A DNA stretch of 64,000 nucleotides from contig OZ245040.1 in NCBI GenBank assembly GCA_965224195.1, forward strand, positions 448,001 to 512,000. The letters run 5' to 3'. Within the stretch, counting starts at the first letter, position 1. Each line of letters starts with the position of its first letter. A program made the translations under genes and the position numbers. The notes beneath the pieces were generated by a model. The model was not told the origin of the DNA, made no database searches, and saw nothing but the letters and a program-made list of their open reading frames with translations. Shown in pieces: positions 35,303 to 64,000 of the stretch. Origin of the DNA: Nitrosopumilus sp. (GTDB taxonomy: Archaea; Thermoproteota; Nitrososphaeria; Nitrososphaerales; Nitrosopumilaceae).

Positions 35303-36571
35303 CTAGATCTCTTTCTGATTTCCCATGTAATTCTGTAAAACACTGGGAATTCTAATGTGGCCATCTTTAGTTTGGAAATTCTCCATTATTGATACCATCA
35401 CCCTGGTTGTGGCTATCAAAGTACTGTTTAGAGTGTGTAAGTATTGTGTATCTTCATTTGTTTTATCTCTAAATCTAATTTTCAATCTTCTTGCTTGATA
35501 ATCTAAACAGTTTGAACATGAAACAATTTCTCTGTATGCGTTTTGTCCTGCCATCCAAGCTTCAATGTCATATGTCTTTGCAGAAACCTTTCCCATATCT
35601 CCAGATGATAGTAACATTACTCTGTGAGGAATTTCCAAGCTTTGATAAAATTCTTCAGCTACTGCTAACATTTTTTCATGTTCCTTCCAAGAATCTTCAG
35701 GTCTTGAAAATACAAATTGTTCAATTTTGTCAAATTGATGAACTCTGAAAATTCCTTTCTGATCTCTTCCATGAGCTCCTGCTTCTTTTCTAAAACATGG
35801 GCTAACCCCTGCATATCTTAATGGTAGTTCTTTACCTTCTAGGATTTCTTTTGCCTTCATTGCTGCCATGGCGTGCTCAGATGTTCCTATCATGTATAGA
35901 TCTTCATCTTCAACTTTGTAAATTACCTCTTCAAAATCATCTGCAATTACAGCCCCCTCCATTGATTCTCGATTAATCATGTATGGAGGTTGAACAAGTG
36001 AATACTCTTTTTTTGCCAGAAAATCTAATCCATAGTGGATTAATGATTGATTCAATCTAACAAGGTCATTTTTCAAATAATAAAATCTAGCCCCTGCTAC
36101 TTTGGCAGCTCTTTCTAGGTCTACTAAATCTAAATTTTCAGAGATATCAATATGATCATTTATTTTAAAATCGAAATTTGGAATTTCTCCCCATTTTTTA
36201 ATTTCTTTGTTTGAATTTTCGTCTACTCCGATAGGAACTGATTCATGAACGAGGTTTGGAATTGTTAATGCTAATTTAGAATATGTTTTTTCAACTGATT
36301 CTTGTTCAGATTCTAGTTTTGATAGTTGAGATGAAACTTCTTTCATTTCTGATAAAATCGAAGATGCATCTTCTCCTGCTTTCTTTTTTTGAGAAATCTC
36401 TAAAGCAACTTGGTTTTTCTTTTTTCTTAATTCATCTGTTTTAAGAATAAATTCACGTCTTTTTTGATTCGATTCAATTAGTGTGTCTAAATCAAAATCA
36501 ATAGCTCTTGCTTTGAGCATATCTCGAATTACTTGCGGTTTCTCTTTGATTAGTTTAGGATCTAACATCAC
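35303..36571 (-). CDS. serS: serine--tRNA ligase
   Basis: N-terminal coiled coil, GTSE, FRKEAG...RVHQF, EIVSCSNC, HTLN. Confidence 0.97.
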   Translation of the reverse strand: MMLDPKLIKEKPQVIRDMLKARAIDFDLDTLIESNQKRREFILKTDELRKKKNQVALEISQKKKAGEDASSILSEMKEVSSQLSKLESEQESVEKTYSKLALTIPNLVHESVPIGVDENSNKEIKKWGEIPNFDFKINDHIDISENLDLVDLERAAKVAGARFYYLKNDLVRLNQSLIHYGLDFLAKKEYSLVQPPYMINRESMEGAVIADDFEEVIYKVEDEDLYMIGTSEHAMAAMKAKEILEGKELPLRYAGVSPCFRKEAGAHGRDQKGIFRVHQFDKIEQFVFSRPEDSWKEHEKMLAVAEEFYQSLEIPHRVMLLSSGDMGKVSAKTYDIEAWMAGQNAYREIVSCSNCLDYQARRLKIRFRDKTNEDTQYLHTLNSTLIATTRVMVSIMENFQTKDGHIRIPSVLQNYMGNQKEI

Positions 36572-44473: not shown

Positions 44474-44595
44474 GGAGGAGTAATCAAGCCTGGCCAAAGT
44501 AAGCACTATGTGCTTTTGGACATGCAGGACTTAAGATCAAATAATGGGTGATCCTGTCTCTCAGGAGTTCGTGGGTTCAAATCCCACCTCCTCCA
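44474..44595 (+). tRNA. tRNA-Leu(TAA) with two introns (44500-44521 in the D-arm, 44536-44550 at 37/38)
   Basis: GGAGGAG/CTCCTCC-A acceptor; removing both inserts gives CAGGA-CTTAAGA-TCCTG and a long variable arm; bulge-helix-bulge geometry at the junctions. Confidence 0.9.
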
Positions 44596-54264: not shown

Positions 54265-54546
54265 TCATTCTTTGACTATTTCTACAACATGTTCAATTAT
54301 TTTAGTTGAAACTAATGTATGTTCTTTGTCCAATACTGATTGTATAAAATCTGCAAAATACTCTACTGTTTCTTCATCTTTGAGTAGTATACTGTGAGCA
54401 GATTTATCTTTCAATGAAATCACCATTTCATTTTTCACAATATTTAGAATTCCTGTGATGAAAGTTTCTTTTCCATCATTTATGAAAACAAGACTGGCTA
54501 GTTTTTGTGCTTCGTATTTATCATCACAGGTAATGCTGATTTTCAT
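54265..54546 (-). CDS. hypothetical protein coupled to trpS
   Basis: ATGA start/stop overlap with trpS. Confidence 0.7.
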   Translation of the reverse strand: MKISITCDDKYEAQKLASLVFINDGKETFITGILNIVKNEMVISLKDKSAHSILLKDEETVEYFADFIQSVLDKEHTLVSTKIIEHVVEIVKE

Positions 54547-55655
54547 CTATTCTCAAAAAGAAATTGATCTATTTGATTTTTAGCTTTTTCTCTGTTTTCT
54601 TGATGGATTGCAAGAAATGCATTAATTTTCTCAATCAAGATTGCTTTTAGTTTGCCTGAAAGTAGTTTCCCTGATTTATAATCTTCATAAATTGTTTTTA
54701 ATTTATCATCATCTGGCTCAAAAAATATCCTTAGGTATTGATAGGATACATCGATATCTGGATTTCCACCCAGTTTTCTATGTTGTTCAATATCCGGTTG
54801 TCCTCCTGAAAATGCATGTTTGTTAATTTTTTTTTTTACTTCAGATGGAGAATCTGTTGTGTATATTGTACCTTTTTCATCCGATGCTGACATTTTTCCA
54901 CCAGGTCCTTCTAAACTAGGAATCATTATGTTGTGAATTAATGCAGGTTTTTGTTTTCCAATTTTTTGTGCTATATCACGTGTTAGTCTAAAATGAGGAT
55001 CTTGATCAACTCCTAATGGAATTAGCACTGGTTTATCTTCAATAAAACACGGAGCTGATTGTAATGATGTATAAAATATCATTCCAATATTTGTTTCATT
55101 TGTAAATCCAAACGTAGCTTTTGTATTTGAAAAATTAATTTTTTTTGCTACCTGGGCTGCAATTGGATATAATGTTTGAATATTTCTTGTGTTTATGATA
55201 ATTTTTGTTTTTTCTGGGTTGAAACCTAATGCAATAAAATCTAATGCATTTTCATAAGCAAATTTCTTTGTATCTTCTAAAGTAAGATTAGATTTTGAAT
55301 AAAATTTCTCATCATCGGTAAGTTGAAAATACAAATTCACATCAAATTTTTCTTGTAACCATTTTGCAAACATCCATGGTACCAAATGCCCTATGTGAGT
55401 ATGTCCTGAGGGGCCCCTTCCAGTATATAGAAAGAATTTGTTTCCTTTCTCATATTCATCAAGAATTCTATTCAGTTCTCTATGTGAGAAGAAAATGCCC
55501 CTTCTGAGCATAAAATGATCCTCGCCTGTAATTTTCTTGATTCTTTCGAGTAATTCTGAAGAAATTTTTTCAGTTCCAAATCTCTTGATTAGTTTATCAT
55601 AGTCGATATCGCCCTCAACATGCCAAGGCGTTACAGTAAAGTCATCAGCTGACAT
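54543..55655 (-). CDS. trpS: tryptophan--tRNA ligase
   Basis: YTGRGPS, HIGH, DQDPHFR, KMSAS. Confidence 0.97.
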   Translation of the reverse strand: MSADDFTVTPWHVEGDIDYDKLIKRFGTEKISSELLERIKKITGEDHFMLRRGIFFSHRELNRILDEYEKGNKFFLYTGRGPSGHTHIGHLVPWMFAKWLQEKFDVNLYFQLTDDEKFYSKSNLTLEDTKKFAYENALDFIALGFNPEKTKIIINTRNIQTLYPIAAQVAKKINFSNTKATFGFTNETNIGMIFYTSLQSAPCFIEDKPVLIPLGVDQDPHFRLTRDIAQKIGKQKPALIHNIMIPSLEGPGGKMSASDEKGTIYTTDSPSEVKKKINKHAFSGGQPDIEQHRKLGGNPDIDVSYQYLRIFFEPDDDKLKTIYEDYKSGKLLSGKLKAILIEKINAFLAIHQENREKAKNQIDQFLFENR

Positions 55656-55700
55656 TCATCTTGACTTAGGTTAAGGTTTAAAAAGTCTTTTTCGGATTCT

Positions 55701-57095
55701 TTGCTGTTGTCGCAAGTTTTTCATGATATTGAAAAAAAAATTATTACCTCATTAAGAGATAATCCAAAACAATCTCCTGAATCCCTGGAAAAATCAACAC
55801 AACTTTCCCCTGATCAAATTAGACGTGGAATTGAATGGCTAAAACTAAAAGATCTGGCAATTGTTTTTGAATCAAAATCAAGTGTGATGAGTTTAGGAAA
55901 AAATGGAATTGAATCATTTGAAAAAGGATTACCTGAAAGGAGATTACTAAATTTACTAAAGGATGGACCAAAAAAATTATCTGACTTGCAAAAAGAATTA
56001 GGATTTGTATTTGGACCTTCAATGGGGTTATCTAGAAAAAATAATTGGATAGAAGTCTCATCTGATGAAATTTCTATTAAGACTCCACCTTCAGATCTTC
56101 CAGGTGAAAAAACCCTCAAACTAATTGGAAATGCAAAATTATCTAAAGATAAAATTAACAGTACTGATTTATCTGGACTTTTAAGAAGACCTGATTTTAT
56201 TGTTGAGGATATTATTAAGGCAAAAGAAATTTCGTTATCTGATGCTGCAAAATCAATTAAGATTTCAGATTCAGTTGGAGGCATTGATGTTGAAGCTACA
56301 GTTCCAGATGTTTTTGTTGCAAGAACTCATCCACTAAAAGATACGATTGATGAAATTCGTGAAATTTTTGTCACACTTGGTTTTTCAGAAATTTTAGGCA
56401 ACATGACACAATCAAGCTTTTGGAATTTTGATGCTCTTTTTACTCCACAAGATCATCCGGCTAGAGAATTACAAGATACATTTTACCTTGATAAAATAAA
56501 TGCTAAAAAAATTGGAACTCCTGAACAAATTAGAAAAGTTTCTGAATCACACAAAAAGAATTGGAGATATCAATGGGACATAAACGAAGCAAGAAAAATG
56601 GTTCTTAGAACTCACACTACTTGTGTGACCATCAAACATTTAGCTGAAAACAAACCTGATGAGGCACGGATTTTCTCATTAGGACGTGTATTTAGAAATG
56701 AAAAAGTCAGTTACAAACATCTTGTGGAATTTAATCAAATTGAAGGAGTTGTCGTTGGAAAAGATGCATCTTTGAAAAATTTAATGGGAATTCAACGAGA
56801 ATTTTATAAACGAATAGGAATAACGAAGATAAAATTCTGGCCAACATTTTTCCCATATACTGAACCATCACTCCAGACTATGGTTTACAATGAAAAATTG
56901 GGAAAATGGATTGAGTTATTTGGAATGGGTATTTTTAGACCCGAAGTAACCAAACCTCTTGGAATTACACAACCTGTTTTAGCTTGGGGTGGTGGAATTG
57001 AAAGAATTGCAATGCTAAAATATGATCTAGCTGATGTAAGAGAGTTTTACAACAACGATCTTGGATGGTTAAGGAGTGCTAAAAAATGCCAGTAA
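55701..57095 (+). CDS. pheS: phenylalanine--tRNA ligase alpha subunit
   Basis: WNFDALF.PQDHPARE.QDTF, LRTHTT, VFRNE, FFPYTEPS. Confidence 0.97.
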   Translation: MLLSQVFHDIEKKIITSLRDNPKQSPESLEKSTQLSPDQIRRGIEWLKLKDLAIVFESKSSVMSLGKNGIESFEKGLPERRLLNLLKDGPKKLSDLQKELGFVFGPSMGLSRKNNWIEVSSDEISIKTPPSDLPGEKTLKLIGNAKLSKDKINSTDLSGLLRRPDFIVEDIIKAKEISLSDAAKSIKISDSVGGIDVEATVPDVFVARTHPLKDTIDEIREIFVTLGFSEILGNMTQSSFWNFDALFTPQDHPARELQDTFYLDKINAKKIGTPEQIRKVSESHKKNWRYQWDINEARKMVLRTHTTCVTIKHLAENKPDEARIFSLGRVFRNEKVSYKHLVEFNQIEGVVVGKDASLKNLMGIQREFYKRIGITKIKFWPTFFPYTEPSLQTMVYNEKLGKWIELFGMGIFRPEVTKPLGITQPVLAWGGGIERIAMLKYDLADVREFYNNDLGWLRSAKKCQ

Positions 57096-58726
57096 TCGAA
57101 TTATCTTATTCTCGTCTCCAAAAATTAATTGGAAAAGTATCGAAAAAACAAATTTCTGATTCTTTACCTTTTCTTGGATTGGATATTGAATCAGAAGATA
57201 AAGATCTTGTAAGGGTTGAATACAGTCCAAATAGACCTGATTATTCAACTGATTTTGGAATTGCGCTTGGTTTGCAAGGATTACTTGGGATTAAGACTGG
57301 TCCAATAAAACTAAATGTAAAAAAATCAAACAAATATCTGATTTCTGTTAAACCTAATGTCTCAAGAATTAGGCCATTTGTAACTGGAATTATTGCAAAA
57401 AATGGTAAAATTGACGATAAAACAATCAAACAATTAATGACTATGCAAGAAGATCTGCATTTTGGAATTGGAAGAAAAAGAAAAAAATCCTCTATAGGAA
57501 TACATGATTTAGATAAAATTTCATTCCCATTAGTTTACACTACAACTAATAGAAATCACAAATTCATTCCACTAAACTCTGAAAAAGAATTGGATATATC
57601 CGAAATACTTGATACAACTGATGTTGGAAAAGATTATGGTTCTTTACTTGGACAGTCTTCCCAAGTTCCTATAATTTTAGATGAGAAACAAAATACGGTA
57701 TCATTTCCTCCAATTATCAATGCGGCTGTTACGACTGTCACTACCAAAACAAAAAATCTCTTTGTAGAGGTAACTGGTCTCAATAAAGACGATGCTGAAG
57801 ACATGTTGTCCGTAGTAGCCACTGTTTTACAAAGTGCTGGGTTTACTTTAGAATCAGTAAAAATTACAGGTGCTAAAAATTCTTCACCAAAATTAGAACA
57901 TAGAAAAATAACTGTCAATTCTTCATTGATTAACCAAATTTTAGGTTTGAATCTTCCATCTTCAAAAATCATTTCATCCTTGAAAAAATCTAGATTGGAT
58001 GCATCATCTAAAGGAACAAACATTATTTGCACAATACCTGCATATCGATTTGACATTTTTGGTCCTATGGATTTAGTAGAAGAAGTTGCTTTAGGATATG
58101 GAATTCAAAATCTTGAACCTACAATATCCCCTTCTCAAACTATCGGAAAAACAAACCCTGTTTCATTAAAACTAAAATCACTGGATCAAACTATGATTGG
58201 ACTTGGATATCTTGAAGCTTTGAATTCTAGCTTGACCAGTAAACGTGTACTATATGATATGACCAACAGAGATTCAACAAAACTTCTCTCAGTACTTGAC
58301 TCAAAAAGCAGAGAACATACTATTTTACGTGACTCTATACTTCCAGGATTATTAGAAAACCTTTCAAGAAATATTCACGAGTCTTATCCTCAAAAAATGT
58401 TTGAAACTGGAACCGTATTTGCAACTGAAAATCCAATATCTGAAAAAATTAGTTTTTCCGGAATTAGTGCTCATAAAGATGCAAATTTTACAGAAATAAA
58501 ATCAATAATTCAAACCGCATTAAACATTGGATTTGGAATTAAAGTTGAAACAAGGACTTCAACTGATTCTACATTTGAAGAAGGTCATTGTGCATCAATT
58601 ATCCTAGATAATGTGCCAATTGGTATTATTGGAAAAATTGATTCAAAGATTATTGAAAATTATAAAATTCGTGTACCTGTAGTGGGATTTGAGATTTCTT
58701 TGTCAGACTCTGTTCTTAAAAATTAA
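57086..58726 (+). CDS. pheT: phenylalanine--tRNA ligase beta subunit
   Basis: PNRPD, RPFV, FPPIIN, YRFDI...DLVEEVA. Confidence 0.96.
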   Translation: MPVIELSYSRLQKLIGKVSKKQISDSLPFLGLDIESEDKDLVRVEYSPNRPDYSTDFGIALGLQGLLGIKTGPIKLNVKKSNKYLISVKPNVSRIRPFVTGIIAKNGKIDDKTIKQLMTMQEDLHFGIGRKRKKSSIGIHDLDKISFPLVYTTTNRNHKFIPLNSEKELDISEILDTTDVGKDYGSLLGQSSQVPIILDEKQNTVSFPPIINAAVTTVTTKTKNLFVEVTGLNKDDAEDMLSVVATVLQSAGFTLESVKITGAKNSSPKLEHRKITVNSSLINQILGLNLPSSKIISSLKKSRLDASSKGTNIICTIPAYRFDIFGPMDLVEEVALGYGIQNLEPTISPSQTIGKTNPVSLKLKSLDQTMIGLGYLEALNSSLTSKRVLYDMTNRDSTKLLSVLDSKSREHTILRDSILPGLLENLSRNIHESYPQKMFETGTVFATENPISEKISFSGISAHKDANFTEIKSIIQTALNIGFGIKVETRTSTDSTFEEGHCASIILDNVPIGIIGKIDSKIIENYKIRVPVVGFEISLSDSVLKN

Positions 58727-59446: not shown

Positions 59447-59486
59447 ATTGATATAATTATTGATATAATTATTGATATAATTATTG
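59447..59486. repeat. 12-bp tandem repeat ATTGATATAATT x3.3
   Basis: Read directly from the sequence. Confidence 0.9.
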
Positions 59487-59532
59487 CTGAGATTCTGTAA
59501 TATTTTTTTCTTTAATTCAAAAATAAAAACTA

Positions 59533-59615
59533 GTCAGGTTTCCGAAGTATGGTATCGAGGTTGTCTGAAAAACAACAGCTTCCTAGGCACATGGGTTCGA
59601 ATCCAATACCTGACG
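59533..59615 (+). tRNA. atypical tRNA: GAA anticodon, long variable arm, G73
   Basis: GTCAGGT/ACCTGAC-G; D-loop AGTATGGTA; GTTGT-CTGAAAA-ACAAC; variable stem GCTT-CCT-AGGC; GG-TTCGAAT-CC. Confidence 0.8.
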
Positions 59616-59742
59616 GGTTTATTAATTATAATATGAATAATAATAAAAAGATTTATCGTTCTTGAGATTGAAATTCATATCTACATAACGTTACAGAACC
59701 TACAAAAGTATTCATTAAATACAATATGCCACAAATTATTTT

Positions 59743-62481
59743 GTGAGGCCCGAAGATAGTGCACGTCAAGAAATTGATAAAATGCTAATTGATTCAGGTT
59801 GGATAATTCAAGATCATGAGACTAGGAATCTTAGTGAATCGCTAGGTATTGCAGTAAGAGAATATCCGCTAAGTAAGGATAATGTAGATTATGCTCTTTT
59901 CATTAATTCTCAACCCGTAGGAGTAGTAGAGGCAAAAAAATATGGTCATACGTTAAGTGGCGTAGTAGAGCAATCTGAAAAATATCTAGATGGTTTGCAT
60001 GAAAAATTTACCCATTCACCAATACGACCTCCATTTTCATACGAAACCACGGGAATTGAGACAAAATTTGCAGACAGACGTGATCCTAATTTTCGCTCTC
60101 GTTATGTCTTTACATTTCACAGACCTGAATTGCTACAATCCTGGCTCAAAGAAGAGAAAACATTACGTGCAAGATTAAACAACATACCAAAATTGGATCC
60201 TGGTATACTTTGGGAGTGTCAAATTGAAGCCATCACAAATCTAGAGAATTCTCTTTCACAGAATAAACCACGTGCCTTAATTCAGATGGCAACAGGTTCT
60301 GGTAAAACATTCACTGCCGTAACTGCAATTTATCGATTAGTCAAATTTGCAAAGGCAAAAAAAATTTTATTTTTAGTTGACAGGTCAAATTTGGGCAGAC
60401 AGGCATTGCGTGAATTTCAACAGTATGAAACACCTGATGATGGGAGAAAATTTACTGACTTGTATAACGTACAACTGCTACAATCACACACAATTGATCC
60501 TGTCCCAAAAGTTGTAATCTCAACAATTCAAAGAATGTTTTCAATTCTAAAAAATGATAAAGACTATGAGGATGAAAATGATGAATTTTCATCGTTTGAA
60601 GATTTACAGGATGAAACTCCAGTTGAAGTACACTACAATGAAAATATGCCAATTGGAGAATTTGATTTTATTGTTATTGATGAATGTCATCGTTCTATTT
60701 ACAATAAATGGAAACAAGTTCTTGATTACTTTGATTCGTTTTTAATCGGATTGACTGCAACTCCGTCAAATGACACTGTAGGATTTTTCAACAACAACCA
60801 GGTAATGAGGTATACTCATGAGCGAGCAGTTGTAGATGGAGTCAATGTTGGATATCACATGTATAAAATCAAGACCAAAATAACTGATCAAGGGAGTACA
60901 GTAGATGCAGGTCAGTTTATTGAAAAACGTGACAGATTGACACGTAAACGAGAAGCAGAACTGCTTGACATTGACTTGATTTATGCTAAGAACGAACTTG
61001 ACAAATCTGTTGTGTCAAAAGACAGAATCAGATTAATAATTAAAACATTCAAGGAACGATTGCCTGAAATTTTCCCAAACAGGACCCATGTTCCAAAGAC
61101 TCTGATATTTGCAAAAGATGACTCTCATGCAGAAGACATTACAGGTATTGTACAAGAAGAGTTTGGGTTGGGAAATGAGTTTTGCAAAAAAATCACATAC
61201 AGAACCAAAGAAAAACCTGAAGATCTCATATCCAGTTTTAGGAATTCATCAATGCCTAGAATTGCAGTAACAGTTGACATGATTGCGACAGGAACTGACA
61301 TCAAGCCATTGGAATGCATTATCTTTATGCGAGATGTTAGAACTAGGAATTATTTTGATCAAATGAAAGGTCGTGGAACTAGAACAATAAAAAAAGACGA
61401 TTTGATTGCAGTGACTCCTGATGCTAAGAATAAAACACATTTTGTAATTGTTGATGCAGTAGGTTTACGAGAAGATTCAATGAGTGACACTCATTCTCTT
61501 TTACAAAAACCCAACGTATCTTTTACAAAATTATTGGACAAGGCAATTGACAAAAATGCGGATACTGGAGACATTGAAAGCTTGATTTATCGTTTATCTA
61601 GACTAGATAGAAAATTAAACCAAGAAGACAAGGATGAAATTGCAAATAATGGAAAGTCTCTTGTAGAAATAGGGAGAATTTTACTTGATGGAATTGATGC
61701 AGATAAAAGACTAGAACAAGCAAAAGAGCAGTTTGATACTGAAAAACCAACTGACGAACAGATTAGAATCGTATCAAAACAAATGATTGATGAATCTTGT
61801 AAAATTTTTGACTCATCGAAACTACGTAAAACCATACTTGATATCAAATCTAAAAATGAGCAAATTATTGATGATGTATCTATTGATGAATTATTAAAGG
61901 CAGGATTTACAGAACAAGTTAATTCCATTGATAAAAAAACAATAGAGAGATGGTCTGAATTTGTGGAGAAAAACAAGGATCAGATCACCGCACTTGACAT
62001 AATTTACTCAAAGCCTTACAGGATGAGAGAGATTACATTCTCAGATATCAAAGATTTGACAAACTCTATACGGAATCCACCATACAATCTCACATCAGAG
62101 ATGGTCTGGAACGCCTATTCTAGACTAGACAAGTCAAAGGTAAAGAAAAATCCAGCTAAAATGCTGACTGATTTGATATCTCTAGTTAGGTATTCTACAG
62201 GAAAAGAAGAATCATTATTGCCATTTTCAGATGTTGTAGATTCAAAGTTTGAAAAATGGCTGATACAGCAAGAGTCATCAGGGCGAGTATTTACAACAGA
62301 ACAAAAGGAATGGCTGCTTGAAATTAAAAAAGGAATAGCAAGTTCTGTCTCAATTGGCATTGAGGATTTGGATGAAATTCCATTTAACCAAAAGGGCGGT
62401 AGAGTAAAGTTTTATGAAATATTTGGAGATGATTATGAGAAGATTTTAGAAGAACTGCATGAGGTGTTGATTAATTCATGA
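59743..62481 (+). CDS. hsdR: type I restriction enzyme R subunit
   Basis: VDYALF...VEAKK nuclease, MATGSGKT, DECH, LTATP, QMKGRGTR; EcoEI-like C-terminus. Confidence 0.93.
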   Translation: MRPEDSARQEIDKMLIDSGWIIQDHETRNLSESLGIAVREYPLSKDNVDYALFINSQPVGVVEAKKYGHTLSGVVEQSEKYLDGLHEKFTHSPIRPPFSYETTGIETKFADRRDPNFRSRYVFTFHRPELLQSWLKEEKTLRARLNNIPKLDPGILWECQIEAITNLENSLSQNKPRALIQMATGSGKTFTAVTAIYRLVKFAKAKKILFLVDRSNLGRQALREFQQYETPDDGRKFTDLYNVQLLQSHTIDPVPKVVISTIQRMFSILKNDKDYEDENDEFSSFEDLQDETPVEVHYNENMPIGEFDFIVIDECHRSIYNKWKQVLDYFDSFLIGLTATPSNDTVGFFNNNQVMRYTHERAVVDGVNVGYHMYKIKTKITDQGSTVDAGQFIEKRDRLTRKREAELLDIDLIYAKNELDKSVVSKDRIRLIIKTFKERLPEIFPNRTHVPKTLIFAKDDSHAEDITGIVQEEFGLGNEFCKKITYRTKEKPEDLISSFRNSSMPRIAVTVDMIATGTDIKPLECIIFMRDVRTRNYFDQMKGRGTRTIKKDDLIAVTPDAKNKTHFVIVDAVGLREDSMSDTHSLLQKPNVSFTKLLDKAIDKNADTGDIESLIYRLSRLDRKLNQEDKDEIANNGKSLVEIGRILLDGIDADKRLEQAKEQFDTEKPTDEQIRIVSKQMIDESCKIFDSSKLRKTILDIKSKNEQIIDDVSIDELLKAGFTEQVNSIDKKTIERWSEFVEKNKDQITALDIIYSKPYRMREITFSDIKDLTNSIRNPPYNLTSEMVWNAYSRLDKSKVKKNPAKMLTDLISLVRYSTGKEESLLPFSDVVDSKFEKWLIQQESSGRVFTTEQKEWLLEIKKGIASSVSIGIEDLDEIPFNQKGGRVKFYEIFGDDYEKILEELHEVLINS

Positions 62482-63866
62482 ATGAATTGATTTTAGAAGA
62501 AAAGCAAAAATTACCAAATGGATGGAAAGAATCTAATCTAAATTTATTATCTTTAGTTGTTACAAAGGGTTCCACCCCAACCACTCATGGTTTTAAATAT
62601 CAAATAATGGGTATTAATTTTATTAAAGTAGAAAATATTGTTGATGGTTGGATAGATCAAAATACTGTTCATGAATTCATAAGTCAAGATACAAATGATT
62701 ATCTAAAACGTTCACAACTACAAGAAAATGATATTTTATTTTCAATAGCTGGAACTATTGGTAGAACTAGCATTATAAGAAAAATAGATTTACCTGCAAA
62801 TACAAATCAAGCAATTGCAATTATTAGATGTCCGTGGAAATATCTGAATCCAAAATACATCCGTTTGATTTTAGACTCTCCAATTTTATTTCATATATTT
62901 AGTCTTAAGACTCGTGGAGTTGGAATTTATAATCTTAGTTTAAATGATATTAAAGAATTAAAAATTCCAATTCCTCCACTAAACGAACAAAAAAGAATCG
63001 TAGCAAAAATTGAATCAATCTTCTCCCAGATTGATGCAGGACAAACCAAGCTAGATGCGGTTAAGATATTGTTGAAGCAACAGAAACAATCTGTTCTAAA
63101 AGTAGCTTTTGAAGGTAATCTTGTACCACAAGATCCAAATGATGAACCAGCTGAAGTATTATTAAAGAAAATTCATGTCGATTCAAAGATAGAATTTGAC
63201 AAAGAGAATCTTCCAAAGGGATGGATTAGAACAAAAATTGGATTTACTATTGATCCATCAAAAGACAGATTTGATCCGATTACAAATAAAAATAAAACAT
63301 TCATTGGTCTAGAGCACATTGAAAGTAATACTGGAAAGATTATTAGAAAAGGAGAATCAAAAAATCTTACAAGTACAAAAACAATATTCAGATCAGGGGA
63401 TATTTTGTATGGAAGACTACGTCCATATCTTAACAAAGTATGTGTCCCTAATTTTAACGGAGTATGTTCAACAGATATTCTAGTTTTAAAAAAAAACTCT
63501 TTTCTATCAAATAGATTTATTGCGTTATTTTTTGCAACCAATTGTTTTGTCACATATGCAAATGCAAATATGACTGGAGTCCAACATCCTCGTATTAGTT
63601 TCAAAAAAATCTCAATATTTACAATTCCACTTCCACCACTCAACGAACAACATCGCATAGTTACCAAAATCGAATCAATCTTTGGCAGAATTGATGCAAT
63701 TGAAAAGCAAGTAAATGATTCACTAATTAAGCTTGATCACTTGAAAAAAAGTGTACTCAAAAAGGCTTTTGAAGGCAAGCTTGTGCCACAGGATCCAAAT
63801 GATGAACCAGCATCTGTTTTATTGGATAAAATCAAATTAGAGAAATCTCATGTACAGAAAAAATAA
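62478..63866 (+). CDS. hsdS: type I restriction-modification specificity subunit
   Basis: Two TRDs, each followed by PPLNEQxRIVxKIE and AFEGxLVPQDPNDEPA. Confidence 0.95.
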   Translation: MNELILEEKQKLPNGWKESNLNLLSLVVTKGSTPTTHGFKYQIMGINFIKVENIVDGWIDQNTVHEFISQDTNDYLKRSQLQENDILFSIAGTIGRTSIIRKIDLPANTNQAIAIIRCPWKYLNPKYIRLILDSPILFHIFSLKTRGVGIYNLSLNDIKELKIPIPPLNEQKRIVAKIESIFSQIDAGQTKLDAVKILLKQQKQSVLKVAFEGNLVPQDPNDEPAEVLLKKIHVDSKIEFDKENLPKGWIRTKIGFTIDPSKDRFDPITNKNKTFIGLEHIESNTGKIIRKGESKNLTSTKTIFRSGDILYGRLRPYLNKVCVPNFNGVCSTDILVLKKNSFLSNRFIALFFATNCFVTYANANMTGVQHPRISFKKISIFTIPLPPLNEQHRIVTKIESIFGRIDAIEKQVNDSLIKLDHLKKSVLKKAFEGKLVPQDPNDEPASVLLDKIKLEKSHVQKK

Positions 63867-63877
63867 ATTTCCAAGAT

Positions 63878-64000
63878 CTAACTGATAAATTTAGATAAAA
63901 TTGTCTTTATTTCCAAAAATATCTTTTTGTTTATTTTTCCAATATTCATTTTAATCAGTTTTTTCTCCACACTAAAAATTCGATTTATTTTTACCCCACT
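63878..64000 (-). CDS. C-terminal part of a PemK/MazF-like toxin (truncated by window edge)
   Basis: Minus strand reads SGVKINRIFSVEKKLIKMNIGKINKKIFLEIKTILSKFIS*, resembling the MazF C-terminal pattern. Confidence 0.55.
   Translation of the reverse strand, partial: SGVKINRIFSVEKKLIKMNIGKINKKIFLEIKTILSKFIS

Follow-up and report, generated by a model that had tools for sequence, protein, structure and literature searches.

A tRNA gene with a phenylalanine anticodon on a serine-type body

The subject of this report is an unusual transfer RNA (tRNA) gene at positions 59533–59615 (+) of a 64,000-nt stretch of a Nitrosopumilus sp. genome, hereafter the window, which corresponds to C1:448001-512000 of a genome of 2.07 Mb (G000). 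An earlier note had described the gene as a chimera, with the anticodon of tRNA-Phe on a body of the Ser type, and the structural details given there—an 83-nt cloverleaf, the anticodon, a variable stem, G73 and two stem mismatches—are all present by direct inspection, ARAGORN and Rfam. The gene and its immediate flanks comprise the following features:

59498–59509 (+): A/T-rich TATA-like stretch, -35 to -24 of the mature 5' end; putative promoter
59527–59531 (+): bases -6 to -2 of the 5' leader, complementary to 59616–59620
59533–59615 (+): class II tRNA gene; anticodon GAA, G73, 14-nt variable arm, CCA not encoded
59567–59569 (+): anticodon GAA in the loop CTGAAAA (U33, A37, A38), from the sequence and ARAGORN
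59577–59590 (+): variable arm, with 1 unpaired nt, a 4-bp stem, a 3-nt loop and 2 unpaired nt (ViennaRNA)
59616–59620 (+): 3' trailer GGTTT, complementary to 59527–59531 and conserved among relatives of the main subfamily

ARAGORN labels the gene tRNA-Phe(gaa), with the anticodon at gene position 35, and the Rfam tRNA model RF00005 covers it over all of model positions 1-71 with 38.5 bits (gathering score 29; E 1.5e-4 for the window). The cloverleaf has a perfect 7-bp acceptor stem, U8, A14, G15/C48, G18G19 and the T-loop TTCGAAT, as well as G30:C40 and G73 (59615), and the 14-nt variable region folds as.((((...)))).. in ViennaRNA. This is a genuine tRNA-type gene. That it is more than a chance cloverleaf follows from the relatives described below, since a model made from the gene and two homologues finds dozens of them and their four stems covary. 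The letters themselves betray no obvious sequencing slip, because the contigs of two sequencing runs (X1 and X2, from one study that is possibly the source of the assembly) span the gene with zero differences and because GAA recurs in 36 of 47 homologues.

The host genome has its own, separate genes for the two canonical tRNAs with which the chimera has to be compared, a point that the earlier note had wanted checked, and a canonical tRNA-Leu lies within the window:

G000 1361898-1361974: canonical tRNA-Phe(GAA), intact, with A73 and G37
G000 c1845304-1845404: canonical tRNA-Ser(GGA), intron-bearing, intact
Window 44474-44595 (+): canonical tRNA-Leu(UAA), 122 nt, with A73 and a Leu-type variable arm (65 bits with a home-made Leu model)

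The earlier note had also considered that the gene might be a decaying tRNA-Ser(GGA) with one anticodon change. The idea that it is such a duplicate of the host gene, with a single G35A substitution, or that the anticodon is a sequencing error, draws on the loop CTGAAAA, which is one base away from the loop of host Ser(GGA). However, the host gene, which contains an intron, is preserved intact at another locus and differs greatly from the candidate in its stems, GAA is conserved across genera in divergent homologues, the contigs of two runs agree with the window, and the candidate came with an inserted island (see below). We therefore consider this origin highly improbable.

The body resembles tRNA-Ser in a host with a single SerRS

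The stems of the candidate have little in common with those of any host class II tRNA, and its G+C content is lower (47% vs 53-66%, with 60-66% for host Ser). In G000, G73 and a short D-loop are common to all four canonical tRNA-Ser genes, those with the anticodons GGA, UGA, CGA and GCU, and their variable arm is uniform, with a 5-bp stem and a GCAA loop (in the three intron-less isoacceptors of three genomes). The five canonical tRNA-Leu genes all carry A73, their D-loop is longer and their variable arm ends in TTC; the candidate has G73, a Ser-type D-loop and an arm ending in AC. With host tRNA-Ser it shares G73, the type of D-loop, G30:C40, A37 and a long arm with one or two unpaired bases on the 3' side, and it departs from it in the anticodon, in G+C content and in an arm without the 5-bp stem and GCAA loop. 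With host tRNA-Phe it shares the anticodon alone, being class II with G73, A37 and a 14-nt arm where tRNA-Phe is class I with A73 and G37.

We quantified this with home-made isotype models, built from 10 Ser and 7 Leu sequences, which separated held-out controls: the Ser and Leu models gave 88.2 and 51.2 bits, respectively, for Ser(GGA) and 47.3 and 77.9 bits for Leu(CAA). The candidate reaches 50.7 bits with the Ser model, compared with 29.7 for the Leu model and 88-100 for real tRNA-Ser, so that by this measure the body is Ser-like. The same holds for its relatives, as the Ser score exceeds the Leu score in 44 of the 47 aligned members, and the two differ by only 0.7-5.1 bits in the remaining three.

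These features are also those that synthetases recognise. According to PMC9976931, the variable arm and G73 define a tRNA as Ser, G30:C40 contributing more weakly and the anticodon being ignored, and Phe identity requires G34, A35, A36 and A73. The candidate thus combines the full Ser set (long variable arm, G73 and G30:C40) with three of the four Phe elements, its anticodon being neither NGA nor GCU, the anticodons of Ser. G000 encodes one seryl-tRNA synthetase (SerRS) and one alpha subunit of phenylalanyl-tRNA synthetase (PheRS), and no paralogue of either was found in this genome. The window itself holds, at 36248-36568 (-) and 54543-58726, the single SerRS (N-terminal domain match), a gene of the tryptophanyl/tyrosyl-tRNA synthetase type and pheS-pheT, which are core genes unrelated to the island.

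One worry about the use of G73 was that it might not be Ser-specific in this host, since the only tRNA(UAA) reported by ARAGORN has G73. We rejected it: that gene is an accessory oddity, and the true canonical tRNA-Leu(UAA), in the window at 44474-44595, has A73. The latter was missed by ARAGORN with introns allowed and by Rfam, and was found by the home-made Leu model alone; its 122-nt length is due to inserted stretches, apparently one or more non-canonical introns. The oddity is a second accessory class II/G73 tRNA of G000, outside the window at C1:287463-287546 (-) (L115:1501-1584), labelled tRNA-Leu(taa) by ARAGORN. Both its anticodon stem and its T stem contain mismatches, a search of 40 other Nitrosopumilaceae genomes (E <=1e-6) gave no match to it, and four of five relatives lack its flanks. 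A further 93-nt Rfam tRNA match outside the window (G000:C1:246665-246757, minus strand; 50.2 bits), unreported by ARAGORN, is probably another intron-bearing canonical tRNA.

An accessory family of class II tRNAs with anticodons for middle-U codons

Nitrosopumilaceae genomes contain an accessory family of class II tRNA genes of which the candidate is a member. A BLAST-level search gave two homologues of the same design, one of 83 nt in the same genus (75% identity) and one of 90 nt in another genus. A covariance model made from these three sequences (R1) was run on 151 genomes of the genus, and the census, which is a lower bound because it comprises the best 150 of 1,318 matches, contains family members scoring above every canonical tRNA (at best 65-66 bits, for tRNA-Ser(GCU)) in at least 15 of the 151 genomes, and lower-scoring members verified by their anticodons in at least six more. 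The candidate, at 98.6 bits, is the top match by construction, being one of the three seeds. A sample of 151 genomes from 27 genera of the family Nitrosopumilaceae revealed members in further genera (this tally includes two unpublished genomes, G092 and G093, on which no claim rests), and a scan with an exact pattern located others in records with the titles Nitrosopumilus sp. and Nitrosotalea sp. (the latter a metagenome-assembled genome, MAG) and in a soil MAG titled 'Thaumarchaeota archaeon'. Viral contigs gave no match to two 3'-end patterns, a scan confined to exact matches to the main subfamily, which leaves room for viral members.

An alignment of 47 members (E <=1e-14) from about 26 Nitrosopumilaceae genomes shows that the folded RNA of the family is clearly under selection. 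Stem pair cells are paired in 96.4% of cases (acceptor helix 99.4%, T helix 97.0%), and in 18 of the 21 stem pairs both partners have changed in a compensatory way. The alignment has a covariation score of 0.676, compared with 0.206 in column shuffles (reached in none of 500) and at most 0.134 when the partners are slid, and covariation is present in all four stems. All 47 members have U8, A14, U33, T54-T55-C56, A58, the D-loop GG and G73; G30:C40 is found in 40. The variable arm ranges from 14 to 21 nt, with a stem of 3-7 bp in which pairing is kept as the sequence changes.

The anticodons are GAA in 36 members, GAU in six, CAG in three and ACG and GGA in one each (the single GGA member is L057). 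Within the loop, A38 is invariant, A35 occurs in 45 of 47, G34 in 43 and A37 in 42, and the sequence YTGAAAA (Y, pyrimidine) is kept while the flanking anticodon stems diverge widely. The preservation of this loop between such different stems points to decoding or to synthetase recognition. The conservation of GAA and the covariation of the stems in relatives, on which the earlier note had hoped for an answer, are thus both found. The family joins a Ser-type body (long arm, G73, Ser-like D-loop and mostly G30:C40) to anticodons for middle-U codons, those of Phe first, then Ile and Leu, which goes beyond that note in making the candidate one copy of a mobile, multi-copy family that has Ile and Leu anticodons as well. 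Two further class II/G73 tRNAs, with the anticodons CAA and UAA, score in the family range and stand outside the 47-member alignment.

Many virus-borne tRNAs serve the codon usage of their own genomes. An element-borne tRNA with a Phe or Ile anticodon might do the same, if PheRS (or, for the GAU members, isoleucyl-tRNA synthetase) charged it via the anticodon; it would then be an additional, correct tRNA for the A/T-rich codon usage of the element, with the Ser-type body inherited from an ancestral element-borne tRNA-Ser. G34, A35 and A36 are three of the four Phe identity elements, and yeast PheRS mischarges a foreign tRNA into which GAA has been introduced, as reported in the portion of PMC9976931 on which we rely. 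UUY and AUY are among the commonest codons, and both are slightly more used in the island than in the genome (Phe 50.2 vs 42.9 per thousand, ATT+ATC 68.7 vs 63.3). Multi-copy arrays would be more tolerable if the tRNA were harmless, and L057 retains the Ser anticodon GGA. On the other hand, the conserved A73 is replaced by G73 in every member, A37 stands in place of the G37 of host tRNA-Phe, and the long variable arm, for which PheRS has no known use, is kept with its stem paired as the sequence changes; the difference in codon usage is small and, with 3,028 island codons, too weak to decide. Taken together, we find correct charging by PheRS an unlikely explanation of the family.

The candidate lies at the edge of a restriction-modification island

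The earlier note had described the gene as lying next to pheST. That this position has a meaning is not supported by comparison with other genomes of the genus. In four relatives (G251, G183, G203 and G306) the EVE-domain gene that follows pheS-pheT joins straight to the sequence found in G000 from position 518819 onward, so that G000:C1:507471-518818 is an insertion of about 11.35 kb, missing from the site in all four. The candidate begins about 60 bp inside the left edge, and no tRNA is found at the empty site in these relatives. Because the gene sits in an island that they lack, its proximity to pheST is a coincidence of where the island landed. The part of the island that falls within the window is as follows:

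59448–59483: three tandem copies of a 12-bp unit at the left island junction (sequence and empty-site comparison)
59471–64000: left part of the island (empty-site comparison), which continues for about 6.8 kb past the window end
59743–62481 (+): hsdR, type I restriction subunit, the first island gene (Pfam ResIII, EcoEI_R_C, HSDR_N)
62478–63866 (+): hsdS, type I specificity subunit (Pfam Methylase_S)

The junctions share an 11-bp direct repeat of non-tRNA sequence. The 12-bp unit contains a short repeat that is present also at the right junction, outside the window, and the tandem units blur the exact left edge. The contig of one run has two of these units rather than three (a 12-bp deletion at 59447), and the contigs of X3, an independent run, and X4 reach the edge only, that of X3 ending at 59470. 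Past the window the island encodes a NucS_C-like protein, a tyrosine-recombinase-like open reading frame (ORF; Phage_integrase below the Pfam cut-off), an inverted second hsdS and hsdM. The type I system thus runs from 59743-63866 on to G000:C1:518462 (L083), with two opposed hsdS genes flanking the tyrosine-recombinase-like and NucS_C-like ORFs, a layout that resembles phase-variable hsdS shufflons.

Elsewhere, too, members of the family are associated with mobile or variable stretches of DNA. The 143 ORFs in the neighbourhood of 20 other members include IS66 transposases (4), ParB_N (4), MT-A70 (3), TFIIB (3) and integrases (3), in addition to core genes; direct scans beside members identified ParB-MT-A70 methylases, an archaeal phage integrase and TnpB; and members lie 0.6-3 kb from canonical tRNA genes in several genomes. 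No protein neighbour is constant, the largest cluster being found at three of 35 loci. A general link with restriction-modification, which is striking in G000 and G305, is unsupported elsewhere: the 25 Pfam families with the most hits, of the 152 matched by neighbours, include transposase, ParB/MT-A70, TFIIB and integrase, and no classical restriction enzymes. In G305, about 10 copies with the anticodons GAA, GAU and CAG lie within 38 kb of about 50% G+C (L038/L039, G305:C2:188001-226000), interleaved with N6/N4 DNA methylases and MmeI-type and Eco57I-type enzymes. All of these copies are preceded by a conserved stretch of 60 nt that contains a TATA-like box, and all have a T-run terminator. 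In G333 there are four copies in about 850 bp (L010:1207-2039); the T-loop is damaged in one of them, the 5' acceptor strand is broken in another, and a third is a chimera (L010:1793-1875), whose 5' half matches its neighbour up to the anticodon loop and whose 3' half matches another subtype, leaving the anticodon stem broken. A separate arrangement is seen in G325 (L135:6069-7730), where a unit of about 1.13 kb, in which a 127-aa ORF of unknown function follows a family tRNA with the anticodon GAU, is duplicated in tandem.

The flanks of the genes have features of their own. A TATA-like box at about -30 precedes many family members, as it does canonical G000 tRNA genes, and in one subfamily a T-run terminator directly follows G73. 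In the candidate, an A(-1)/G73 mismatch is followed by five pairs between leader and trailer that prolong the acceptor helix. Pairing of at least four base pairs (4-7) that runs straight through G73, a feature of the main subfamily, is found in 25 of 47 members and in two of 40 canonical G000 tRNAs; it occurs in the precursor only.

The mobile context and these flanks raise the question of whether the main role of the family lies outside decoding, as a site for recombination or landing by an integrase or as a processing or decoy RNA of the element, in which case the conserved anticodon loop would be a crossover core or a protein-binding site. The candidate lies close to an island edge, tyrosine recombinases occur near some members, and members are found within 3 kb of canonical tRNA genes, which the part of PMC6563490 at our disposal gives as the usual integration targets. 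Likewise, the G333 chimera is joined at the anticodon loop, arrays contain decayed copies, and the leader-trailer pairing through G73 is commoner in the family than in canonical tRNAs. However, covariation in four stems and invariant tertiary nucleotides in the D- and T-loops imply selection on a folded RNA, beyond a DNA site, and a loop that stays YTGAAAA amid divergent stems fits anticodon selection better than it fits an arm-and-core integrase site. A search for a second copy of the 3' part of the candidate found none, whether within the island, next to it (its far end included) or in the remainder of the genome. The pairing of 19 of 21 stem pairs together with the absence of that repeat also sets the gene apart from a pseudogene or a relic of an attachment site. 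Since, moreover, no protein neighbour is constant, a chiefly non-decoding role seems to us improbable.

A possible Ser-charged reader of Phe codons

The reading that we favour, tentatively and as something short of probable, is that the candidate is a tRNA of a mobile element that is charged by the single host SerRS and is able to read Phe codons as Ser. It would be transcribed from its own TATA-like promoter and fold as a class II tRNA, to be serylated by the one, bacterial-type SerRS of the genome irrespective of its anticodon. Because SerRS ignores the anticodon and the body is of the Ser type, such a tRNA could place Ser at UUU and UUC, in competition with the one canonical tRNA-Phe, and would be a missense tRNA of the element, acting like the bacterial allo-tRNAs discussed below. 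UUY makes up about 4.3% of codons in long ORFs, so any activity must be low or gated. It is probably kept low, the candidate having two stem mismatches, and the leader-trailer helix may hinder processing of the ends. What the element would gain—addiction, defence or a stress-type perturbation of the proteome—is guesswork.

Several observations weigh against this proposal. At the UUY frequency just given, efficient insertion of Ser would be very toxic, and some genomes carry four to ten copies, some of them with ordinary-looking promoters. Phe charging, or charging with both amino acids, is possible because GAA is the full anticodon identity set of PheRS, as set out in the part of PMC9976931 cited above. 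The variable arm of the candidate lacks the 5-bp stem and GCAA loop common to canonical Ser of the genus, and the Ser-model scores of the family (43.6-76 bits) stay well under the 88-100 bits of genuine tRNA-Ser, so that the family is, by its sequences, a distinct Ser-like group. Decayed and chimeric copies in arrays also fit a role in recombination, and a position at the edge of an element combined with a leader-trailer helix also fits a recombination or non-decoding role. Finally, the candidate copy is among the weaker members of the family. Two of its 21 stem pairs are mismatched (C10:A25 and G51:A63), its RF00005 score is the lowest among 46 tRNA matches in the genome, and the unmodified single strand has a minimum free energy (MFE) of -24.1 kcal/mol (z -2.09) in a fold that is not the cloverleaf, which when enforced reaches -15.2; the gap of 8.9 kcal/mol compares with a family median of 1.5.

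These same weaknesses, together with the low G+C content and the A(-1) that interrupts a leader pairing present in relatives, might mean that the candidate is a dying family member that is carried along with the restriction-modification island after losing its function. We think this quite unlikely, given that its universal tertiary positions, acceptor stem and anticodon stem-loop are all intact and that G51:A63 is no private lesion, the same T-arm being found in L008, a homologue from another genus. Its rank as the top R1 match, which also speaks for it, is due to its use as a seed.

The Ser-charged reading can be widened to the whole family. Mobile elements and defence islands of ammonia-oxidising archaea would then carry dedicated SerRS-charged tRNAs that deliberately read hydrophobic NUN codons (Phe, Ile and Leu) as Ser, as a toxin, an addiction factor or an abortive-infection effector. 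Their release could depend on a trigger, with a leader-trailer helix preventing maturation of the ends beforehand, and their origin would be independent of the allo-tRNAs. We offer this as a speculation, doubtful in its full form.

Relation to known tRNAs with conflicting identity and anticodon

To our knowledge, natural tRNAs in which identity and anticodon conflict are rare, the known cases being allo-tRNAs, nematode nev-tRNAs, Candida tRNA-Ser(CAG) and a human allele. Natural mistranslating tRNAs with such a mismatch include Candida tRNA-Ser(CAG) and Streptomyces tRNA-ProX/ProA, which are fixed chromosomal genes or come with a dedicated synthetase. Three members of the archaeal family have, like the Candida tRNA, CAG on a Ser-type body; their genes are, in contrast, accessory, and there is no paralogous SerRS or PheRS.

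The closest parallel is with the allo-tRNAs (Mukai et al., PMC5389517). As described in the part of that paper considered here, these are Ser-type tRNAs with a long variable arm, SerRS identity and non-Ser anticodons, notably for Leu and Ile (UAU), which show a patchy, accessory distribution with frequent inactive or decayed copies, as the archaeal family does. They lie near transposon-related genes and toxin-antitoxin loci, some in polycistrons; on induction they place Ser at Leu codons and are lethal to E. coli. The archaeal genes share with them the Ser elements, a non-Ser anticodon and a mobile context. The main difference is in geometry, as allo-tRNAs have acceptor/T-stems of 8/4 or 9/3 bp and the archaeal family has the standard 7/5. 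Furthermore, allo-tRNAs are bacterial (Acidobacteria and others) and have been shown to insert Ser in E. coli, whereas the present family is archaeal and is dominated by GAA.

Two eukaryotic cases offer more distant parallels. The nev-tRNAs of nematodes are also multi-copy class II tRNAs with anticodons of class I amino acids, including Ile, and are lowly expressed, and the table in the 2014 review (PMC4033280, from which we take these points in part) places tRNAs with a variable arm and class I anticodons in nematodes only. Unlike the archaeal family, which is Ser-like and whose UUY and AUY codons are among the commonest, nev-tRNAs are chromosomal, Leu-charged and directed mostly to rare codons. 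In humans, the G35A variant of tRNA-Ser-AGA-2-3 gives a Ser tRNA with a middle A in the anticodon that misincorporates Ser at Phe codons (PMC12993449); this allele of a canonical gene arose recently in a single species by one nucleotide change, and does not represent a conserved, diverged mobile family. No description of such tRNAs in archaea was found in the literature, with the limit that the thaumarchaeal target list in PMC6563490 may hold some as ordinary tRNA-Phe or tRNA-Ile.

If the favoured reading is correct, archaea would have a conserved family of such tRNAs, with covarying stems, a standard cloverleaf, anticodons for some of the commonest codons and a context of mobile elements and restriction-modification, and marine ammonia-oxidising archaea may misread their own genetic code through it. 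Several questions would become testable in a culturable group: whether archaea tolerate or exploit proteome-wide misreading of Phe and Ile codons as Ser, whether mobile elements use tRNAs as weapons or addiction factors, and how stringent archaeal SerRS and PheRS are towards class II bodies. A practical consequence is that annotation pipelines will label these genes 'tRNA-Phe' or 'tRNA-Ile', which makes the tRNA complement look larger than it is. Other odd tRNA-like genes occur in the vicinity of the family: in two MAGs, 72-nt genes with an acceptor stem beginning GGGCTAG lie a few kb from members (L059:1407-1478 and L061:2704-2775), to which ARAGORN assigns the anticodons Phe(gaa) and Leu(aag).

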